A stretch of DNA of 32,210 nt from the UHGV virus genome UHGV-0152653; one strand, given 5' to 3'. Source of the stretch: a virus. The position numbers and the translations under genes are program-made. This document shows, piece after piece, positions 152 through 32,210 of the stretch. Within the stretch, counting starts at the first letter, position 1, and the number at the start of each line of letters is the position of its first letter. Below the pieces are notes generated by a model, which searched no databases, was not told the origin of the DNA, and saw nothing but the letters and a program-made list of their open reading frames with translations.

Positions 152-1204
152 TTACGGGGTAATGCCAACCGCTGCCGCCACTTTGTCGCCACTTGGCAGC
201 GTTGCCAGAGGATTGAAACGGAGCGCCGTTTCCAGATGATCTGGTGCCAGATGTGCGTAACGCATAGTCATTTTTATATCGTGGTGTCCGAGAATTTTTT
301 GTAAGGCGAGAATGTTTCCACCCGACATCATGAAGTGCGCCGCAAATGTATGGCGCAGAACGTGTGTGAGTTGACCGCGAGGGAGCACGATAGACGTTTT
401 TTCCATCACGGATAAAAATTGAAAATAGCAGTCTGTAAAGAAATTGAACCCATCAAGCGCCATGATCTCTTCGTAAAGCTCTTTACTGATAGGGATGCTT
501 CTGTTTTTCTTCCCCTTCGTTCTGACAAAGGTAATTCGGTATTTGGTCACCTGTGAGCGGGTAAGATTTACGGCTTCACGCCAGCGTGCGCCTGTGCTTA
601 AGCATATCTTAACTACCAGTGCCAGAATCGGGTCCTGACGTTTACAATCAGCCAGCAATTCAACAATCTGCTCATGGGTAAGCCATGCCATCTCTTTTTC
701 TGCGATGGTGAATTTTCGCATGTTCTCCAGTGGGTTCGGATACGACCATTCGCCCAGGCGGGATAGTTCGCTAAAAACACTACTAAGATAGCTTTGCTCC
801 AGGTTAATAGTGACCGGGCTTGCTCCTTTTTTCCATTTCTCGCTGAAGTAGATCTCACCCGTCAGGCGTTTATCTCGATAGTGGGCAAACATTTTAGATG
901 TGAGATCGGTTGCAAGGGGATTGCCCAGAGCGTCAACCATCAACAGCAATTTGTCATAGACATGCTGCCCAGCGGTTAGAGCTTTACCATGTAGTTTGAA
1001 CCATAGCTCAACTACGTCTTTCAGTGTTCGACGATCCACTGATTCACCCAGCCAGGGCTTTGCTTCGGTTTCTTCCATCGTGTGGCGCTCAAAAGCCAGA
1101 GCTTCGCCTTTGGTGGCGAATTGTTTACGCACACGACGCCCACTACGTCCGGCGGGGTAACATTCGCAAAGCCATTTCCCTGTGGTGAGTTTTCGTACTG
1201 CCAT
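152..1204 (-). CDS. int: Tyrosine integrase (P2/186 family)
   Basis: ORF track 152..1360; C-terminal catalytic region with HxxR and terminal Tyr context (LRHTFAAHFMMSGGNILALQKILGHHDIKMTMRYAHL); start chosen at ATG 1204 (MAVRKLTTGKW...), preceded by GGAGGG; the in-frame upstream extension to 1360 is an alternative. Confidence 0.85.
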   Translation of the reverse strand: MAVRKLTTGKWLCECYPAGRSGRRVRKQFATKGEALAFERHTMEETEAKPWLGESVDRRTLKDVVELWFKLHGKALTAGQHVYDKLLLMVDALGNPLATDLTSKMFAHYRDKRLTGEIYFSEKWKKGASPVTINLEQSYLSSVFSELSRLGEWSYPNPLENMRKFTIAEKEMAWLTHEQIVELLADCKRQDPILALVVKICLSTGARWREAVNLTRSQVTKYRITFVRTKGKKNRSIPISKELYEEIMALDGFNFFTDCYFQFLSVMEKTSIVLPRGQLTHVLRHTFAAHFMMSGGNILALQKILGHHDIKMTMRYAHLAPDHLETALRFNPLATLPSGDKVAAAVGITP

Positions 1205-1392
1205 AAAAAATGCCCTCCAGTAGAGAGCATTTTTACTGTATGTATAACCAGTGTCAATGTATGAAATCCTACGACCATACATCTCACTGAAGCCATAATG
1301 AAGTTGGCTATTCTTTTTGCTATGTGAGCATGTAACTTTTGCGGTTAACCTGCGGCTCATTTTTATTTTAGACGCAGATATAAAAGCAAAAG

Positions 1393-1599: not shown

Positions 1600-2256
1600 C
1601 TATTTAACATACTTGACTGTTAAACTTATAATTTTACCAATTATTTCAATGTCTTCTATCTTGCATTCGAAGGCTCTGTTTCCACCCTCGACGAAGATTC
1701 TTCCACCGGGTAAACGAGTAATGTCACGGATCGTTATTTCGCCATCAATACTTATTACCCATTTACCATCACGTATATCATCAAATTCTTTATCACAAAT
1801 AAATTCAGAATTGTTATCTGTGATGACAAAAGGTTTTTTTAACGTAGAGGGTAGAAATTCCTTATCAAAAATATAAAAACCGTCTTTCTGCAATGCTCCA
1901 TCAGACAATAAATATTTTTCTACTTCTATAGTATTTGTATTTGCTGATGCTTGCTTTGAACCATGCCCTGTTGTTAGCCAATTAAGCGAGGTGCCCGTTT
2001 CAAGGGCGCACTGGATTACCCAATCTGCTGGAAAAATATCACGCATATAGCGCGTTGCCATGGTGCTCTTAGAAACACCTAAATGATCACAGAGAGCCTG
2101 ACGGGTACCGAACCCATATGCTTCAACTAAACGTTCTATGGCTTTCTTACCGCCGCTATTGAAATCCACAAGTCCTCCAAAGAAATCCAAAATTCGTTGA
2201 CAGATTCCAAAAGCGATCTTAAAGTTGAACCAGAAGTGTTCTTTTGGAGCCTTCAC
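1600..2256 (-). CDS. cI: CI-like immunity repressor (HTH)
   Basis: Position and orientation (divergent from apl, upstream of int); helix-turn-helix segment LGVSKSTMATRYMRD...CALETGTSLNWL; GTG start at 2256 with no clear RBS, so the start is uncertain. Confidence 0.65.
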   Translation of the reverse strand: MKAPKEHFWFNFKIAFGICQRILDFFGGLVDFNSGGKKAIERLVEAYGFGTRQALCDHLGVSKSTMATRYMRDIFPADWVIQCALETGTSLNWLTTGHGSKQASANTNTIEVEKYLLSDGALQKDGFYIFDKEFLPSTLKKPFVITDNNSEFICDKEFDDIRDGKWVISIDGEITIRDITRLPGGRIFVEGGNRAFECKIEDIEIIGKIISLTVKYVK

Positions 2257-4383: not shown

Positions 4384-5237
4384 GCACCATCCTGAAATGG
4401 GCGGGAAATAAAACCGCCATAATGTCCGAACTGAAAAAGCATCTTCCTGCTGGCCCGCGACTGGTTGAACCTTTCGCGGGTTCCTGTGCAGTGATGATGG
4501 AGACGGATTACCCCAGCTATCTTGTTGCGGATATTAATCCTGATTTAATCAACCTCTATAAAAAGGTTGCTGCTGATTGTGAGGCGTTTATATCTCGTGC
4601 CAGAGCTTTATTTGAGGAAGCAAACAGGGAGGTGGCTTATTACAACATAAGGCAGGAGTTTAATTACTCCACTGAAATTACTGATTTCATGAAAGCGGTA
4701 TATTTTCTGTATCTCAATCGTCATGGTTACCGTGGGTTATGTCGCTATAACAAGAGCGGGTATTTCAACATTCCCTACGGTAATTATAAAAATCCGTATT
4801 TCCCTGAAAAAGAAATTCGCGCATTTGCAGAGAAAGCCCAGCGGGCAACGTTTATCTGCGCCAGCTTTGATGAAACGCTGGCGATGTTGAAGGCGGGGGA
4901 TGTGGTGTATTGCGATCCGCCGTATGACGGTACGTTTTCCGGCTATCACACTGATGGTTTCACTGAAGATGACCAGTATCACCTGGCATCCGTTCTTGAA
5001 CATCGGTCATCAGAAGGACATCCGGTCATTGTTTCTAACAGTGACACATCCCTGATCCGTTCGCTGTATCGCAATTTTACTCACCACTACATCAAGGCAA
5101 AACGCAGCATCGGTGTGGCAGCTGGTGATAGTAAATCTGCAACAGAAATCATTGCTGTTTCCGGGGCGCGCTGCTGGGTGGGATTTGATCCTTCGCGTGG
5201 CGTAGATAGTTCTGCTGTGTACGAGGTGCGTGTATGA
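4380..5237 (+). CDS. dam: DNA N6-adenine methyltransferase (Dam-like)
   Basis: Motif [10 protein letters not shown] and motif IV DPPY ([10 protein letters not shown]); GGAGGTG RBS before ATG 4380; stop overlaps the gpA start (ATGA). Confidence 0.8.
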
Positions 5238-7618
5238 GTCATGACGATATGAGCAACTCTAGCGGCTTTAACGAGGCCGCTGCATCATTTTCATGGAACG
5301 GCCCGAAAAAGGCCATTAACCCTTATCTGGACCCGGCGGAATTTGCGCCGGAGTCTGCACTTTCAAACCTGATCACTCTGTATGCTGCCGATAACGAGCA
5401 GGAACAACTGCGCCGCGAGGCACTGAGTGAGCAGGTCTGGGAGCGTTATTTCTTTAATGAATCCCGTGATCCTGTCCAGCGCGAAATGGAGCAGGATAAG
5501 CTCATTAGCCGGGCAAAGCTGGCGCATGAGCAGCAGCGTTTTAATCCAGACATGGTCATTCTGGCTGACGTCAACGCCCAGCCTTCCCATATCAGCAAGC
5601 CGCTGATGCAACGTATTGAATACTTCAGCAGTCTGGGCAGGCCAAAGGCTTATTCCCGCTATTTGCGTGAGACGATTAAGCCATGTCTGGAAAGACTGGA
5701 GCATGTACGCGACAGTCAGCTATCCACTTCTTTTCGCTTTATGGCAAGCCATGAAGGGCTGGACGGCCTGCTGATCCTGCCTGAAATGAGTCAGGATCAG
5801 GTAAAACGCCTGTCCACCCTGGTAGCAGCGCATATGAGCATGTGTCTTGAGGTCGCTTGTGGTGATTTGTATGCCACCGATGACGTTAAGCCAGAAGAAA
5901 TCCGCAAGACATGGGAAAAGGTGGCGGCGGAAACCCTGCGACTGGATGTCATACCGCCTGCGTTTGAGCAACTCCGCAGGAAAAGAAACCGCCGTAAACC
6001 CGTGCCCTATGAACTTATTCCGGGTTCGCTGGCGCGTATGTTGTGCGCCGACTGGTGGTATCGGAAATTATGGAAGATGCGTAGCGAATGGCGGGAAGAG
6101 CAGTTGCGTGCTGTTTGCCTGGTCAGCAAAAAAGCATCTCCCTATGTCAGCTATGAAGCCGTGATGCATAAACGTGAGCAGCGCCGTAAGTCGCTGGAGT
6201 TTTTCCGTTCTCATGAACTGGTGAACGAAGACGGCGACACGCTGGATATGGAAGACGTGGTAAACGCCAGCAGCAGCAACCCTGCGCATCGCCGCAATGA
6301 GATGATGGCCTGTGTTAAAGGTCTGGAGCTTATCGCGGAAATGCGCGGTGACTGCGCCGTTTTCTACACCATCACCTGTCCGTCACGTTTCCATTCCACG
6401 CTAAATAACGGCAGGCCAAACCCGACCTGGACCAACGCGACAGTAAGACAAAGCAGCGATTATCTGGTCGGCATGTTTGCTGCATTTCGTAAGGCTATGC
6501 ACAAAGCCGGGTTGCGCTGGTATGGCGTGCGGGTGGCTGAGCCGCATCATGACGGCACAGTTCACTGGCACCTGTTGTGTTTCATGCGCAAAAAAGACCG
6601 CCGCGCCATTACTGCATTGTTGCGTAAGTTTGCCATCCGTGAAGACCGCGAGGAGCTGGGCAATAACACGGGGCCACGCTTTAAGTCTGAGCTGATAAAC
6701 CCGCGCAAAGGAACGCCGACAAGCTACATTGCGAAATATATCAGTAAGAATATTGACGGGCGTGGTCTGGCTGGCGAGATCAGTAAGGAAACGGGTAAAT
6801 CCCTGCGTGATAACGCTGAATACGTTAATGCCTGGGCGTCTCTGCATCGTGTTCAGCAATTCCGCTTCTTTGGCATTCCGGGGCGTCAGGCTTACCGTGA
6901 ACTGCGATTGCTGGCTGGTCAGGCGGCAAGGCAACAGGGGGACAAAAAAGCAGGTGCGCCGGTACTGGATAACCCGCGCCTTGATGCAATCCTGGCTGCT
7001 GCTGATGCTGGTTGTTTTGCCACTTACATCATGAAGCAGGGCGGCGTACTGGTTCCCCGCAAATATCACCTCATCAGAACTGCTTATGAAATTAACGAAG
7101 AGCCGACCGCCTATGGCGATCACGGCATTCGTATTTATGGCATCTGGTCACCCATTGCAGAGGGCAAGATCTGCACTCATGCAGTGAAGTGGAAAATGGT
7201 TCGTAAAGCCGTTGACGTTCAGGAGGCGGTAGCCGACCAGGGCGCTTGCGCCCCTTGGACTCGTGGCAATAACTGTCCCCCTGTTGAAAATTTGAACCAA
7301 TCAGGGGGCGATTTACCAGAAGCCAGTGGGCCGGAGTCGCTGCCGGATCTTCATAATCTGAGCGCGAAGGAACGACGGGAGCTGACGGCGCGGCTGAGAT
7401 TGGTAAAACCTAAGCGGCGGAAAGGGTACAAACAGCAGATTAGCAATCATCAGCGCCAGCAGCTTGATGCTGAACTGAGGTCTAGGGGGTTCGATGCGAG
7501 TGATACCGAGGTGGATCTGCTTTTGCGTGGTGGCAGTATCCCGTCCGGGGCCGGGCTGCGTTTGTTCTATCGAAACCAGCGCCTGCAGGAAGATGATAAA
7601 TGGCGGCAGTGGTACTAA
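5234..7618 (+). CDS. A: Replication initiation endonuclease gpA (rolling-circle, HUH)
   Basis: 794 aa; HUH motif in [10 protein letters not shown] and paired-Tyr motif YIAKYISK; position as in P2/186. Confidence 0.85.
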
Positions 7619-7652
7619 TGTGAGAGTATTTTATATTCATATTCAAAAATGC

Positions 7653-7682
7653 CAGCCTAACAAATCAGGCTGACATTTTTTT
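7653..7682. terminator. Bidirectional rho-independent terminator between gpA and the convergent two-gene cargo operon
   Basis: Stem CAGCCT (7653-7658) and AGGCTG (7667-7672) with 8-nt loop, flanked by AAAAA upstream and TTTTTTT downstream. Confidence 0.55.
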
Positions 7683-7689
7683 ACTTACT

Positions 7690-8148
7690 CTATTTAGTTT
7701 TTTCAATCATAGTGCTTTCGGCTTTTGAATATACACTATTAATAGTGGTGATTTTTGTAGTTAATGCTATACAAACTAGACTCAGAAGTAAGACACCAAT
7801 TGATATTGTATTGTTGCTGAGTATTATATGTAGACAAATAGAATAAATTGCAACGATGACTATTGCTACGAAAACAAAGATTGCCATTAAATTATGTGCT
7901 TTGATGTAGTCCTCAGGGGTTAATATGTAGCTTATGTTTATGATTATAAATAAAATTAAAAATGCTCCCCCAATCCATTTGGGTAGGGCTGTTTCTTTTT
8001 TTGATACTGCAGGTGTGGTTCTTGGGATCGATTCTACGAAGGATTTAAGATTTCCCATGTCAGTATTGTTTAATGCTGCACTTTCTGCTTCGAATTTTGA
8101 AACAGTGCCATCAGGAAGGGTTGTAGTCCAGCTTATTTTTCCTGTCAT
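7690..8148 (-). CDS. Small membrane protein (152 aa, three predicted TM helices); candidate effector of a two-gene cargo system
   Basis: N-terminal ~55 aa hydrophilic, then three hydrophobic segments (WIGGAFLILFIIINISYIL, LMAIFVFVAIVIVAIYSICLHIIL, ISIGVLLLSLVCIALTT); ATG overlaps the stop of the upstream gene (ATGA); AT-rich by eye. Confidence 0.55.
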   Translation of the reverse strand: MTGKISWTTTLPDGTVSKFEAESAALNNTDMGNLKSFVESIPRTTPAVSKKETALPKWIGGAFLILFIIINISYILTPEDYIKAHNLMAIFVFVAIVIVAIYSICLHIILSNNTISIGVLLLSLVCIALTTKITTINSVYSKAESTMIEKTK

Positions 8149-8519
8149 ACAACATCCCTTATTCTGAATATTCTATTAAAATCAATATCAACAGCAGAGT
8201 TCGACCACTCACTCTTTTGATTATCTTTAATTAGAATTGCTTTGTTCTCGTCAAAGATTATATTTGTACCACTAAACTCAATATGAGATAGGTCTCCTCT
8301 AAATATTTTTTGCTCAACGCTTTTGAATGCATCTTTTAATGATGCACACTCTTTTCTGAATAATGGTTTGGGGCTGTAAGTCCCTAAGTTTATAACTATT
8401 ACGCCACTACCATCTTTAGCAGGGTGAATGGAGAAAGATAGCGCTAATCCGTGATAGTGGGATTGTATTTTCTTCATTAATTTACGAACGTAATCATCAT
8501 ACCGCTTTCTATATATCAT
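8145..8519 (-). CDS. Hypothetical soluble protein (124 aa); upstream partner of the membrane protein
   Basis: ORF with 4-bp overlap onto the downstream gene; no recognisable motif; AT-rich; weak RBS, so the start is uncertain. Confidence 0.5.
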   Translation of the reverse strand: MIYRKRYDDYVRKLMKKIQSHYHGLALSFSIHPAKDGSGVIVINLGTYSPKPLFRKECASLKDAFKSVEQKIFRGDLSHIEFSGTNIIFDENKAILIKDNQKSEWSNSAVDIDFNRIFRIRDVV

Positions 8520-8683
8520 TTTTTTCTTAATGGTTAGTTGTTTTTCGTATATTACAATACTAATAAATATATTGTCGATTCAAATAAAACGTTGTAGCCA
8601 AGCGGAAGAATTTTAGTTTACGGATGGTTGTTTTTTGATCTCCATAGCCGAAGGCAATCTGAACTATAGTGATCATAAAAGTG

Positions 8684-8727
8684 TTTACATTCATGGAACT
8701 ACGCATATACTGTATATGTGTACAGTG
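8684..8727 (+). promoter_or_regulatory. SOS-regulated promoter with LexA operator
   Basis: -35 TTTACA (8684-8689), 16-nt spacer, -10 TATACT (8706-8711); LexA box TACTGTATATGTGTACAGTG (8708-8727), CTGT-N8-ACAG and 17/20 to consensus, overlapping the -10. Confidence 0.7.
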
Positions 8728-8757: not shown

Positions 8758-8946
8758 ATGCAAGACTATTTTTTGGAGTCGTTGAAGCTCCAGCGCATTG
8801 ATTTTTTTGTCAAGCTTGTGGCGGCTAGTGAGTGTGATGATGAAGAGAAGCGACTGGCTATCCAGTGGGTTTCTGAGTTAACGGATGAGCTGATGGCAAA
8901 GATTCGTGCTCATGAATACAACCGCTCAATGGATCTTCCCAGTTAA
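8758..8946 (+). CDS. Hypothetical SOS-controlled protein (62 aa); candidate antirepressor module (positional equivalent of 186 tum)
   Basis: First ATG downstream of the LexA-box promoter with AGGAGGG RBS; acidic small protein; function assigned by position only. Confidence 0.45.
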   Translation: MQDYFLESLKLQRIDFFVKLVAASECDDEEKRLAIQWVSELTDELMAKIRAHEYNRSMDLPS

Positions 8947-9024: not shown

Positions 9025-9291
9025 ATGGGTAAATCCAACAGCAAATTCCAGACCGTTTATGAGGGGCAGGCGCTTGAACGTGACGAACTTGGCGGATGGG
9101 TTTTGTTTCAGCGTCGTGTAGAGTATGGCGGCAAGTACTGGATGGGAATAACCATGGATGATGTGTTTTTGTTTGGCTCCGATCATCCTGTATCAGGTAG
9201 TGAGGCGATGGTCTTCATCATTGATTATGAGGGCGAGCAGCTCAGACGGTCTTTACCCGTTGGATACACCCCACAAATGCCGCTTTTCTGA
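9025..9291 (+). CDS. Hypothetical SOS-controlled protein (88 aa)
   Basis: Second ORF of the same transcription unit, followed by a terminator at 9359-9384. Confidence 0.45.
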   Translation: MGKSNSKFQTVYEGQALERDELGGWVLFQRRVEYGGKYWMGITMDDVFLFGSDHPVSGSEAMVFIIDYEGEQLRRSLPVGYTPQMPLF

Positions 9292-11299: not shown

Positions 11300-12331
11300 C
11301 TATGCAAGGTTATATTCATTAAATTGCATTATTGGCTCCTTTATCCATTCATTTACTTCTTGAAGCCTTTTTTGCAATGGAATTAGCTCATTACGGACAA
11401 AGACCCTGCTGGCTTTCTCCACATCCCCAAATCCCCCGACATTATTTGGCATTATCCCCATCATTTGTGGCGGCACACGATGCGCAGCCATCATGTCATC
11501 CCGGCTCACGTTCTTGATATTCAGAAACTCATCCTTCGCCGCGACTTCTGACAACGGGATGATCTGAAGCCCGTCCTTTTTGCCGTTAGGCGAGTACATA
11601 AACAGGTTGCGGAAGTTGCCAGGGCCTTTGGCGCTTTTCATCGCATTGCGGAGGTTGTTCACATCCTCCTGGTTCTGCGCGGCATCGGTCATGTACATGA
11701 TGAAGCCTGCATGACTGCCGTTAATGTAATACTTCCGGCGGAACAGCGTGGCGGACTCGTTGAGCAGGGCCGACGGAATGGCAGAAAGATAACCTGGCAG
11801 GCCGTAGATCTCCTGGTTGATGTCAGGTTCCATCAGATGAAAAATGCTGCCTTTCGTGAACTGATACGGCTGGGTTGTCATACCGTATTGCACAAACCAG
11901 TAGGTATCCAGGTCTAACCCGCGTCGGGTGTATTTTGCCAGCGCAGGCTCAAGGGCTATAACTTCACCGAATCGGTTCGTGCGTTTCTCCAGGTAGGCGT
12001 TACCAAATACCAGATAGTCCTGCACAAAACGCGAAAAAGCCTGTTGGCTGAGCAGCGGATGAGGGATATAGGTACTGGTCAGAATGTTGCACTTTACTGC
12101 AATCGGGGAACTGTGATGCACGGCAGCCCGGAAGGTGCGCGCCAGTCCGTCAAAACTTACGGGTGGCTCATACCAGCGATCCGTCTGTACGCATTCCACA
12201 TAGTCCAGCAGTTCGCGGCGGTCCAGTACAGGAATGGGATCACCAAAGCTGAAAGCTTCGGCTGAAGTTTGATTTTTATGCTGGCTCCGTTTCGTCGCAG
12301 CAGCGCGGTTTTTCTTACTCTTTCCCATCAA
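11300..12331 (-). CDS. Q: Portal protein (P2 gpQ-like)
   Basis: 343 aa, leftward, overlapping the large terminase gene; size and position as P2 Q. Confidence 0.85.
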   Translation of the reverse strand: MMGKSKKNRAAATKRSQHKNQTSAEAFSFGDPIPVLDRRELLDYVECVQTDRWYEPPVSFDGLARTFRAAVHHSSPIAVKCNILTSTYIPHPLLSQQAFSRFVQDYLVFGNAYLEKRTNRFGEVIALEPALAKYTRRGLDLDTYWFVQYGMTTQPYQFTKGSIFHLMEPDINQEIYGLPGYLSAIPSALLNESATLFRRKYYINGSHAGFIMYMTDAAQNQEDVNNLRNAMKSAKGPGNFRNLFMYSPNGKKDGLQIIPLSEVAAKDEFLNIKNVSRDDMMAAHRVPPQMMGIMPNNVGGFGDVEKASRVFVRNELIPLQKRLQEVNEWIKEPIMQFNEYNLA

Positions 12332-14094
12332 AAAATCTCCACAATATTGCTGGTATTGGCGGACTCGCCCTGCAGCGGTTCGTTAAACAGTGCGTGCATT
12401 GTTGCCCAGGCCAGATCGGCGTGGCTGGCTTCTTCGCTGCGGCTAGCTTCATAGGTCGGGCGGTTGCCGCTGGCGGTGGTGGCGCGACGGATTGCCATGA
12501 ATGACTGCGCAATGTCGGTGTGCCCGGCGTCAAACTCCAGACGGCGGTGGCTGATAATGTCGTAGGCCTTGAGTACCAGGGCGTTTTTAACGTTGGGGTT
12601 GTAGACAAACTCCCGGACGGCAGGAAAGAACGCTTTCACGTTCTCATAAACCCCGTGACCGACGCCTGTCGAGTCGATGCCGATATAGGTCACGTTGTAC
12701 TGCTCGGTCAGTTTTTTGATTGCATCAGCCTGGGCGCGGAAGTCCATCCCGCGCCACTGGTGACGCTCAAGAATGCGAAACTTACCGCCTGGCACGGCTG
12801 GCGGTGCCACCACCACGCATCCGGCGCTGTCGCCATTCTGCGTACCTTTTGCCGGGTCATAACCGATCCACACCTCGCGCCAGCCAAACGGGCGCAGGGC
12901 CAGTGCATGAAAGTCGGTCCAGACTTCCCAACTGTCCACCATGCACGCCTGCAGCTCGCTGAGCGGAAACACGGATGCGAGATCGTCCACAAACTCGCAC
13001 ATCAGCAGGTTCTGGTATTCGTCCGGGCTGTACTCCATGCGTAGCTGGTCGAGGTCGAACAGGTTACAGCCGCCGCGCACCGCATCTTCCACGGTGACTA
13101 TCTGGCGGTATTGCCCGTCTGCGCACAGCAGGCCGGGGGCCAGATTGCTGTGGGACAGGTCGATGTCCACCTTATCGGCTTTGTTGCGCCCACGGTTGAA
13201 CAGCGCACCGGACCAGAACGGATAAGCACTGTGTGTCAGACTGGATGGCGTGGAAAAATAGGTTTGTCGCCATTTTTTGTGAATAGCCATACCGGAAGCC
13301 ACTTTGCGCAGCTCCTGGAATTTCGGTATCCAGAAATATTCATCCAGATACAGGTTGCCGTGGTAACTCTGGGCCGTGCGGGCATTGGTGCCGAGGAAGT
13401 AAAGCGTGGCCCCGTTGGGAAGCACCATCGGATCGCCTTTCAGCTCCACTTCCACTTCTTTGGCGAAGTCGATGATGTACTGCTTAAAGACGTGGGCCTG
13501 TGCTTTGCTGGCGGAAAGGAAAATCTGGTTACGTCCGGTCAGCAGGGCGTCAATCAGGGCTTCACGGGCAAAGTAAAAGGTCGCGCCGATCTGGCGTGAC
13601 TTCAGCAGGTTGCGGATGCGGTTGGTTTTTCCGGCTTCCCACCAGTGGCGCTGGTAGTTGAACATGGAGGAATGGAAGATTTCTTCCAGCTTCTCAATCT
13701 GTTCATCGGTGAAAACATTCTTTTCCGGCTGACGGCGCGGGCCTTTGTTGCGGTTGGCGACGTTTGGGTTTAAGTCGGCTTCGTTGCCGCCATTGTTAAA
13801 CTTGCCGATCCGCGCGTGGCGTTCCGACTGGCGCGCCAGCAGGTCAATCTCTTTGAAATCTTTCCCTTCTTTGTGCTCCTTCATAATGAGCTGGCAGTAG
13901 CGTGCGGCGGTGGTGAGCTGCATCTGATCCAGCGGCCCATAGTCACCCCACTTGTCGCGTTTTTTCCAGCTGTGAACGGTTGCAACTTTCTCGCCCAGCA
14001 TTTCAGCAATGCGGGCTACGCGGTATCCCTGAAAGTACAGCAGCATGGCCTGCCGACGGGGATCGAGATCTGCGGGTGTCAGTGTGGTGTTCAT
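12328..14094 (-). CDS. P: Terminase large subunit (P2 gpP-like)
   Basis: 588 aa, leftward, upstream of Q; size and position as P2 P. Confidence 0.85.
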   Translation of the reverse strand: MNTTLTPADLDPRRQAMLLYFQGYRVARIAEMLGEKVATVHSWKKRDKWGDYGPLDQMQLTTAARYCQLIMKEHKEGKDFKEIDLLARQSERHARIGKFNNGGNEADLNPNVANRNKGPRRQPEKNVFTDEQIEKLEEIFHSSMFNYQRHWWEAGKTNRIRNLLKSRQIGATFYFAREALIDALLTGRNQIFLSASKAQAHVFKQYIIDFAKEVEVELKGDPMVLPNGATLYFLGTNARTAQSYHGNLYLDEYFWIPKFQELRKVASGMAIHKKWRQTYFSTPSSLTHSAYPFWSGALFNRGRNKADKVDIDLSHSNLAPGLLCADGQYRQIVTVEDAVRGGCNLFDLDQLRMEYSPDEYQNLLMCEFVDDLASVFPLSELQACMVDSWEVWTDFHALALRPFGWREVWIGYDPAKGTQNGDSAGCVVVAPPAVPGGKFRILERHQWRGMDFRAQADAIKKLTEQYNVTYIGIDSTGVGHGVYENVKAFFPAVREFVYNPNVKNALVLKAYDIISHRRLEFDAGHTDIAQSFMAIRRATTASGNRPTYEASRSEEASHADLAWATMHALFNEPLQGESANTSNIVEIF

Positions 14095-32133: not shown

Positions 32134-32159
32134 TAAATTTCAGGCAACAAAAAACCCAT
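32134..32159. repeat. attR: attR core (right copy of 26-bp direct repeat)
   Basis: Exact 26-bp match to 52-77. Confidence 0.8.
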
Positions 32160-32191
32160 CAACCTTGAACCGAAATGGCGGGGTTGATGGG
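32134..32191 (-). terminator. Probable host rho-independent terminator (minus-strand sense) overlapping the att core
   Basis: Inverted repeat CCCATCAACC (32155-32164) and GGTTGATGGG (32182-32191); read on the minus strand the hairpin is followed by TTTTTTGTTGCC, which lies in the att core. Confidence 0.4.
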
Positions 32192-32210
32192 CTCCACAAA
32201 ATGGGGACAT

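Follow-up and report, generated by a model that had tools for sequence, protein, structure and literature searches.

We describe a pair of adjacent genes, here called gene A and gene B, in a 32,210-nucleotide stretch of viral DNA from the UHGV virus genome UHGV-0152653 (hereafter the window), which is a 186/P2-like prophage of Escherichia coli. Gene A encodes a soluble protein of 124 amino acids (aa) and gene B a membrane protein of 152 aa, and together they make up a rare, horizontally mobile accessory operon. The arrangement of an A homologue followed by a gene for a small protein with three transmembrane (TM) helices is conserved across phyla in distant bacteria, and two unrelated families of temperate phages have captured the pair at accessory sites. 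Neither protein family is annotated or matched by the defence databases that we queried, and in the literature the pair is present as "hypothetical" entries of a supplementary table. Position and architecture make a role in defence plausible, and the two proteins quite possibly form a phage-exclusion module expressed by lysogens, with A as the sensing or regulatory part and B as the membrane effector.

Conservation of the A–B pairing

The sequence downstream of A could be read in 13 lineages, and in 13 of the 13 the A homologue was followed by a gene for a small three-TM protein. These lineages were the window, the Klebsiella and Enterobacteriaceae types (L002–L011), L012, L013/14, L015, L016/17, L018, L019–21, L022, L025, L028, L031/32, and L033/34. 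The partner genes overlapped or abutted A, and in each of their products, of 121–155 aa, a short soluble domain at the N-terminus precedes three TM helices and a short tail. The ATGA-type 4-bp overlap seen in the window, or close adjacency of the two genes, was also found at the distant loci.

Klebsiella and other Enterobacteriaceae carried full-length copies of A and B with 69–89% protein identity. Among the window, Klebsiella-type, and Enterobacteriaceae-type copies, the ratio of nonsynonymous to synonymous substitution rates (dN/dS) was 0.15 for A and 0.08–0.13 for B; in the more distant of the compared pairs of copies, synonymous sites approached saturation. Judged from these substitution patterns, A and B are real genes under purifying selection.

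In one environmental lineage, the two genes were joined into a single reading frame in five distinct 253-aa A–B fusion sequences (P0117, P0142, P0148, P0150, P0112), which differed at 9–28 positions and of which one had a different junction residue. Split forms (128 + 125 aa, with an ATGA overlap) were present at identities of at least 90% in the fusion cluster (P0143, P0147, P0144). The junction DNA read GCGAAAATGAAA in the fused form and GCCAAATGAAA in a split relative, the difference being one extra A in a run of A residues (L023 8370–8390; L013 4070–4090). Either the lineage has a genuine polymorphism of split and fused states, possibly prone to slippage, or the same homopolymer error has recurred in assembly. 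Since the fused state is common to diverged sequences, the fusions are probably genuine.

Protein A and its family

A is a small cytoplasmic alpha/beta protein of a previously unannotated family. Almost the whole of A aligned with PHROG 18061 (E = 1.5e-13), which has no functional annotation. When 1.84 billion representative proteins were searched exhaustively with phmmer, 66 A-family representatives were recovered at E ≤ 1e-3, nearly all of ~125 aa, the best distant homologue having E = 6.8e-14. The alignment of the family yielded the motif F-x-G-T-N ... N-[RK]-I-x-L-I-K-D ... W ... A-x-x-D, which is present in the A protein of the window. Residues G84, T85, and K98 were invariant, and Y10, G38, W105, and D113 were nearly so. 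The RefSeq/PGAP annotation of A begins at Met15 and gives a protein of 110 aa (WP_127699595), differing from ours over positions 8477–8519; the full-length 124-aa homologues and the nearly invariant Tyr10 indicate that the ATG at 8519 is the true start, giving 124 aa.

No match to A was found in Pfam, NCBIfam, or PADLOC. The 47 family members that were scanned had no Pfam match, and against PADLOC they gave only three noise-level matches, each of a single member and none stronger than E = 0.002. The A-family profile matched none of the PDB sequences. The AlphaFold model of A was confident (predicted local distance difference test score, pLDDT, of 90.9) and had no significant structural neighbour. 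Nucleic-acid binding was considered as a general property of A and is unsupported, as the isoelectric points (pI) of the family span 4.7 to 9.9. Searches by tblastn with A or its lambdoid-type homologue found nothing in 50,697 GenBank phage records, and no relatives of the pair were found by blastn in GenBank phages or by tblastn in PLSDB plasmids. The scan of genome contigs for the family recovered at least one locus.

Protein B

B is held in the inner membrane by three TM helices, and its N-terminal domain lies in the cytoplasm. This domain of ~56 aa is hydrophilic and is followed by the three hydrophobic helices and a short tail; the Kyte-Doolittle profile agrees with the initial annotation of the region, made from the sequence without database searches, which had described a hydrophilic N-terminus and three helices. 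B had only noise-level matches in scans of Pfam (E up to 1: YfhO, DUF6594), NCBIfam, PADLOC, and PHROG, and 20 B-family members had no PADLOC match. That annotation could name no family for either protein, and the searches of Pfam, NCBIfam, and PADLOC ended in the same place.

In the common B subfamily (~125–138 aa), an acidic N-terminal motif (MKxGxxEGTxEEIKNFFQDNGL) and a basic loop between the second and third TM helices (QLRFK) were conserved, and together they support an N-in topology. The most conserved parts of the system, namely A, the N-terminal motif of B, and its R/K-rich TM2–TM3 loop, are all cytoplasmic.

Two identities were considered for B and rejected. The match to RdrD scored 18 bits against a cut-off of 230 and reflects transmembrane composition. 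Class I holins have three TM helices (N-out, C-in), belong to a holin Pfam family, and are encoded in a lysis cassette. B matched no holin family, its hydrophilic N-terminal domain of 56 aa lacks a signal sequence, and its gene adjoins gpA in the early region (gpA–portal), outside any lysis cassette.

An accessory cassette at the gpA–portal hotspot

The 1.1-kb region was found at identities of at least 99% in 17 of 5426 complete E. coli genomes (0.3%), always in the same prophage context, whereas a related gpA was present in 1274 of those genomes. Empty sites were also recognizable. In E. coli XH992, a related gpA is followed by ~140 bp and then by the same SOS-type promoter and 62-aa gene as in the window, with no pair between them; the window is homologous to XH992 up to 7620 and again from no later than 8741, with a shared promoter motif from ~8682. 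In phage 186, only 192 bp separate the replication gene A from the LexA-controlled p95 promoter, and there is no cassette. The empty sites in XH992 and phage 186 show that ~1.06 kb (7621 to ~8680) has been inserted between gpA and the SOS operon. The pair is therefore not part of the conserved core of this phage lineage, and its description as cargo in the initial annotation is borne out by the comparison of carriers with empty sites.

The module was also found apart from its phage background. The segment 7693–8579 alone (70% identity) was common to prophages with quite different gpA genes, and these prophages combine the pair with other portal-proximal cargo, including DUF4145, a GAPS4-type PDDEXK set, RES, and DUF6953 genes. 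GC content was 0.32–0.35 across 7600–8600 and 0.53–0.57 in gpA (5200–7600), in line with the AT-rich block within a GC-richer phage core that had been noted at first.

The gpA–gpQ interval of P2-like prophages is a known hotspot of anti-phage systems (Rousset et al. 2022, PMC9122126). The variably present cassette lies between the replication gene A and the portal gene Q and thus fits this hotspot, as had been proposed from its AT-rich composition and its place between gpA and portal. The exact arrangement of the pair is listed in Table S5A of that study as "hypothetical" proteins and is absent from the curated and tested systems of the paper; the same Old-like protein that neighbours the pair in the window is also listed there in an arrangement without the pair (PMC9122126). 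The pair has therefore been catalogued yet left unannotated, and it is independent of the Old-like gene. The initial annotation had missed the Old-like gene 1 kb away, the extent of the family beyond P2-like phages, and the prior listing in the hotspot catalogue.

In addition, a Klebsiella 186-like prophage with the pair carries an extra 235-aa open reading frame (ORF) with a Terminase_6N domain between terminase and portal (L008 5070–5777).

Transcription signals and the SOS neighbour

The two minus-strand ORFs overlap by the ATGA at the very positions given in the initial annotation, and the data support a translationally coupled operon that has a terminator of its own and probably a promoter. 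An AAGGGA Shine-Dalgarno-like motif lies 9 nt upstream of the B ATG. The bidirectional terminator reported at first was confirmed as a hairpin with a folding free energy of -21.2 kcal/mol (z = -5.2; 0 of 200 shuffles folded equally well); it scored as a terminator on the plus strand, with the same reading on the minus strand.

The putative promoter region fared less evenly. A predicted promoter, TCGACA-18-TAATAT, lies 30 nt upstream of the A start and matches the consensus at 9 of 12 positions, and this promoter-like block and the A-rich leader are kept in relatives of 70–80% identity (L002, L005, L008), while the sequence upstream of them diverges. By count, however, the promoter scan was not significant, with 6 sites against 6.2 expected. 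Taken with its predicted promoter, A, B, and terminator, the cassette is best explained as a moron-type, self-contained accessory unit.

A perfect LexA box, CTGTATATGTGTACAG, is located at 8710–8725, where it overlaps a TTTACA-16-TATACT promoter-like site facing the 62-aa gene (region 8684–8725). The 62-aa and 88-aa genes with this LexA-box promoter occupy the place that the p95 SOS operon has in phage 186. The 62-aa protein was considered as a Tum homologue and rejected, as no similarity to Tum of phage 186 could be detected; if this prophage has an SOS-induction factor, it is therefore of another type. Control of the pair itself by the SOS response was likewise rejected, because the LexA box belongs to the divergent p95-like promoter, ~130 bp from the putative -35 element of the pair, and no LexA box was found near the A starts in the other lineages.

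In lambdoid and 186-like prophages, the pair was found divergent from a small SOS gene (DinI or the 62-aa gene) preceded by a LexA box, and in three loci the box lies ~475–500 bp from the A start (L033 6859–8423, L028 7100–8396, L002 7250–8836). This recurrence suggests that the pair and the SOS module may move together between phage families, or that the insertion point may be a preferred one.

Other genomic contexts

Outside 186/P2-like prophages, the pair occurred as an opposite-strand insert in the replication–nin region of lambdoid prophages (Citrobacter, Leclercia, and an IMG/VR contig). It adjoins an integrase in one setting and IS21 or other transposases in others. One pair lies two genes from a SieB-domain gene, one in a Bacteroidota-like chromosomal region, and one in a metagenome-assembled genome (MAG) of Steroidobacter.

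Comparison with known systems

A prophage moron that pairs a cytosolic protein with a small membrane protein is a familiar kind of element. The closest likeness is to RexAB (lambda RexA/RexB, Pseudomonas putida RexABpp, Sbash gp30/31, CarolAnn gp44/43, and Butters gp30/31), which is also a two-gene prophage operon with a soluble protein upstream and a small polytopic membrane protein downstream, set apart from the lytic operons and presumed to work by cytosolic control of a membrane effector (PMC12894663). Homology to Rex was rejected (hhalign probabilities of 0.03% for the A family against lambda RexA and 0.6% for B against RexB). The systems also differ in that A has 124 aa and RexA 279 aa; that the pI range of the A family does not indicate a general DNA-binding role; that B has three TM helices and a soluble N-terminal domain, whereas RexB has four TM helices; and that the cassette is not beside the immunity repressor. 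The pair may thus be regarded as analogous to RexAB-type systems but built from unrelated proteins.

With other cargo of the P2 hotspot (P2 old/tin, Rst_3HP, DUF4238, DprA-PRTase, and TIR+TM), the pair shares its locus, its variable presence, its AT-richness, and its combination with other systems; unlike them, it matches no PADLOC model, Old included.

Possible function of the pair

A and B would associate in a complex at the inner membrane, on its cytoplasmic side. The natural fusions place A directly on the N-terminus of B. The conserved patch of A (Y10, G84-T85-N86, K98, W105, D113) could serve as a sensing or regulatory surface, and B might permeabilise or depolarise the membrane or otherwise arrest the infected cell. 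Less well supported than complex formation is the step in which the complex would be expressed from the prophage and exclude other phages. More tentatively still, A and B may be the founding pair of a phylogenetically broad, two-component, membrane-acting anti-phage family. A, whose fold is without a significant neighbour in the PDB, would then be the cytoplasmic sensor that docks on the N-terminal domain of B and gates permeabilisation; the pair would have been captured independently by 186/P2-like and lambdoid prophages and would be able to work in fused form.

RexAB-type prophage defences that combine a cytosolic and a membrane protein provide a precedent for such a module (PMC12894663), and six of eight random unknown loci of the P4 hotspot were protective (PMC13586616). 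Several observations weigh against a role in phage exclusion. Base rates at the P2 hotspot are moderate, with three of eight extra loci validated (PMC9122126) and 15–32% of unknown proteins predicted to be antiviral by machine learning (PMC13586616). Neither family matched any of the 5027 PADLOC models (PADLOC-DB v2, Old included) above noise. The Steroidobacter pair sits among housekeeping genes (hisS, der, and genes of the type II secretion system) with no mobile-element marker within 8 kb, and ten neighbouring proteins from four non-prophage loci had no PADLOC match. Homopolymer assembly errors are possible for some of the fusions, and the AlphaFold model of a natural fusion was of low confidence (pLDDT 55–75) for the linker and the N-terminal domain of B, so that it yielded no A–B interface. 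Finally, the B protein of the window aligned with the common B subfamily with an hhalign probability of 4.4% (E = 0.009), in register in TM2–TM3 only. With no demonstrable sequence homology between the two, their equivalence rests on architecture and synteny.

Among other explanations, we consider it unlikely that the pair is a toxin-antitoxin (TA) or addiction module, in which B would be a membrane-damaging toxin and A its coupled antidote, stabilising the prophage or mobile element without a dedicated anti-phage role. In its gene order, with the putative neutraliser first, in its small genes, and in their 4-bp overlap, the pair looks like a typical type II-like TA pair, including those with membrane toxins; it occurs patchily and in association with mobile elements, and defence-gene neighbours were not found at the four non-prophage loci scanned. 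However, A has no recognisable antitoxin or DNA-binding domain and neither protein belongs to a Pfam or NCBIfam family, covalent A–B fusions are hard to reconcile with an antitoxin that is labile and degraded on its own, and addiction benefits little a single-copy insert in an integrated prophage. TA activity and abortive infection are not mutually exclusive.

The housekeeping neighbourhood in the Steroidobacter MAG and the Bacteroidota-like contig would also agree with a membrane module that acts outside phage conflict, either a stress, envelope, or signalling adaptor or a lysogenic-conversion factor, and that rides in variable regions. No defence association was detected at the non-prophage loci scanned, and not all cargo of the P2 hotspot serves defence, as partition systems and cytolethal distending toxin are also found there (PMC9122126). 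Such a role is nevertheless doubtful, as the pair is very rare and patchy in E. coli, has been captured repeatedly as a moron by the two temperate-phage families, and occurs repeatedly together with validated defence genes in the same hotspot.

Superinfection exclusion in the manner of Sie, Imm, or Cor, in which entry of phage DNA would be blocked at the inner membrane and the cell left unharmed, seems very unlikely. A prophage membrane protein transcribed against the lytic operons is what would be expected of a lysogen-expressed gene, and the family member near the SieB-domain gene points the same way. Yet very little of B is predicted to reach the periplasm (a loop of ~8 aa and a tail of ~19 aa), and together with the cytoplasmic location of the conserved parts this disfavours a block to entry; furthermore, no match was found to Pfam SieB (PF14163), Imm, or other exclusion families, and members of the family occur in non-phage chromosomal contexts.

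That the ORFs are non-coding or decaying remnants, as might be thought of AT-rich DNA that readily yields ORFs and of an A gene without a clear Shine-Dalgarno sequence, is refuted by dN/dS of 0.08–0.15 with saturated synonymous sites, conservation over the full length, 66 distant homologues, and a confident predicted fold.

Organization of the window

The features of the window are given in Table 1. The Old-like gene is AT-rich (GC content 0.37–0.40) and represents a second, recognisable defence gene of the same hotspot, 1 kb from the pair. Past the tail and late genes, a match to the small RNA RybB (32146–32210; 77 bits, E = 6e-14) is cut by the end of the window and presumably belongs to host DNA next to the prophage end or attachment site.

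Table 1 Features of the window, with coordinates on the 32,210-nucleotide sequence.
Feature	Coordinates	Strand	Basis or remarks
Integrase	152–1360	-	
CI repressor	1600–2256	-	
CII, Fil, DksA-like, and Dam-like genes	between CI repressor and gpA		
Replication endonuclease gpA	5234–7618	+	Pfam and RefSeq annotation of identical/related loci; stop codon at 7618
Whole cassette, ~1.06 kb	7621..8680		between gpA stop and p95-like SOS promoter; homology breaks against empty-site prophage
Bidirectional intrinsic terminator	~7645–7681	common to gpA (+) and pair (-)	perfect GC-rich stem, A-run on one side, T-run on the other
Gene B, 152 aa	7690..8148	-	ORF, membrane protein
B TM helix 3, ~aa 113–133	7750..7812	-	Kyte-Doolittle windows
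B TM helix 2, ~aa 86–108	7825..7893	-	Kyte-Doolittle windows
B TM helix 1, ~aa 58–78	7915..7977	-	Kyte-Doolittle windows
A stop/B start overlap ATGA, 4 bp	8145..8148	-	translational coupling
Gene A, 124 aa	8145..8519	-	ORF, soluble protein
Promoter-like TCGACA-18-TAATAT	8578..8549	-	function predicted
62-aa gene (PHROG 698)	8758–8946	+	
88-aa gene (PHROG 2100)	9025–9291	+	
Old-like ATPase-TOPRIM gene, 566 aa	9563–11263	+	PADLOC Old E = 1.3e-20; Pfam AAA_15, AAA_21, OLD-like TOPRIM
Portal	11300–12331	-	Pfam and RefSeq annotation
Terminase	12328–14094	-	

Implications

Even if it has no role in defence, the pair is still a conserved cytosol–membrane pair that temperate phages have acquired repeatedly. 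If it does exclude phages, it would represent a compact defence family of less than 1 kb that current annotation tools have missed, in which the 124-aa sensor would lend itself to structural work and the membrane effector would be minimal, and it would help to explain part of the "dark matter" of the P2 and P4 hotspots. Since it is found in prophages of Enterobacteriaceae, in environmental Proteobacteria, and in Bacteroidota-like genomes, it would then count as a general rather than a niche system.

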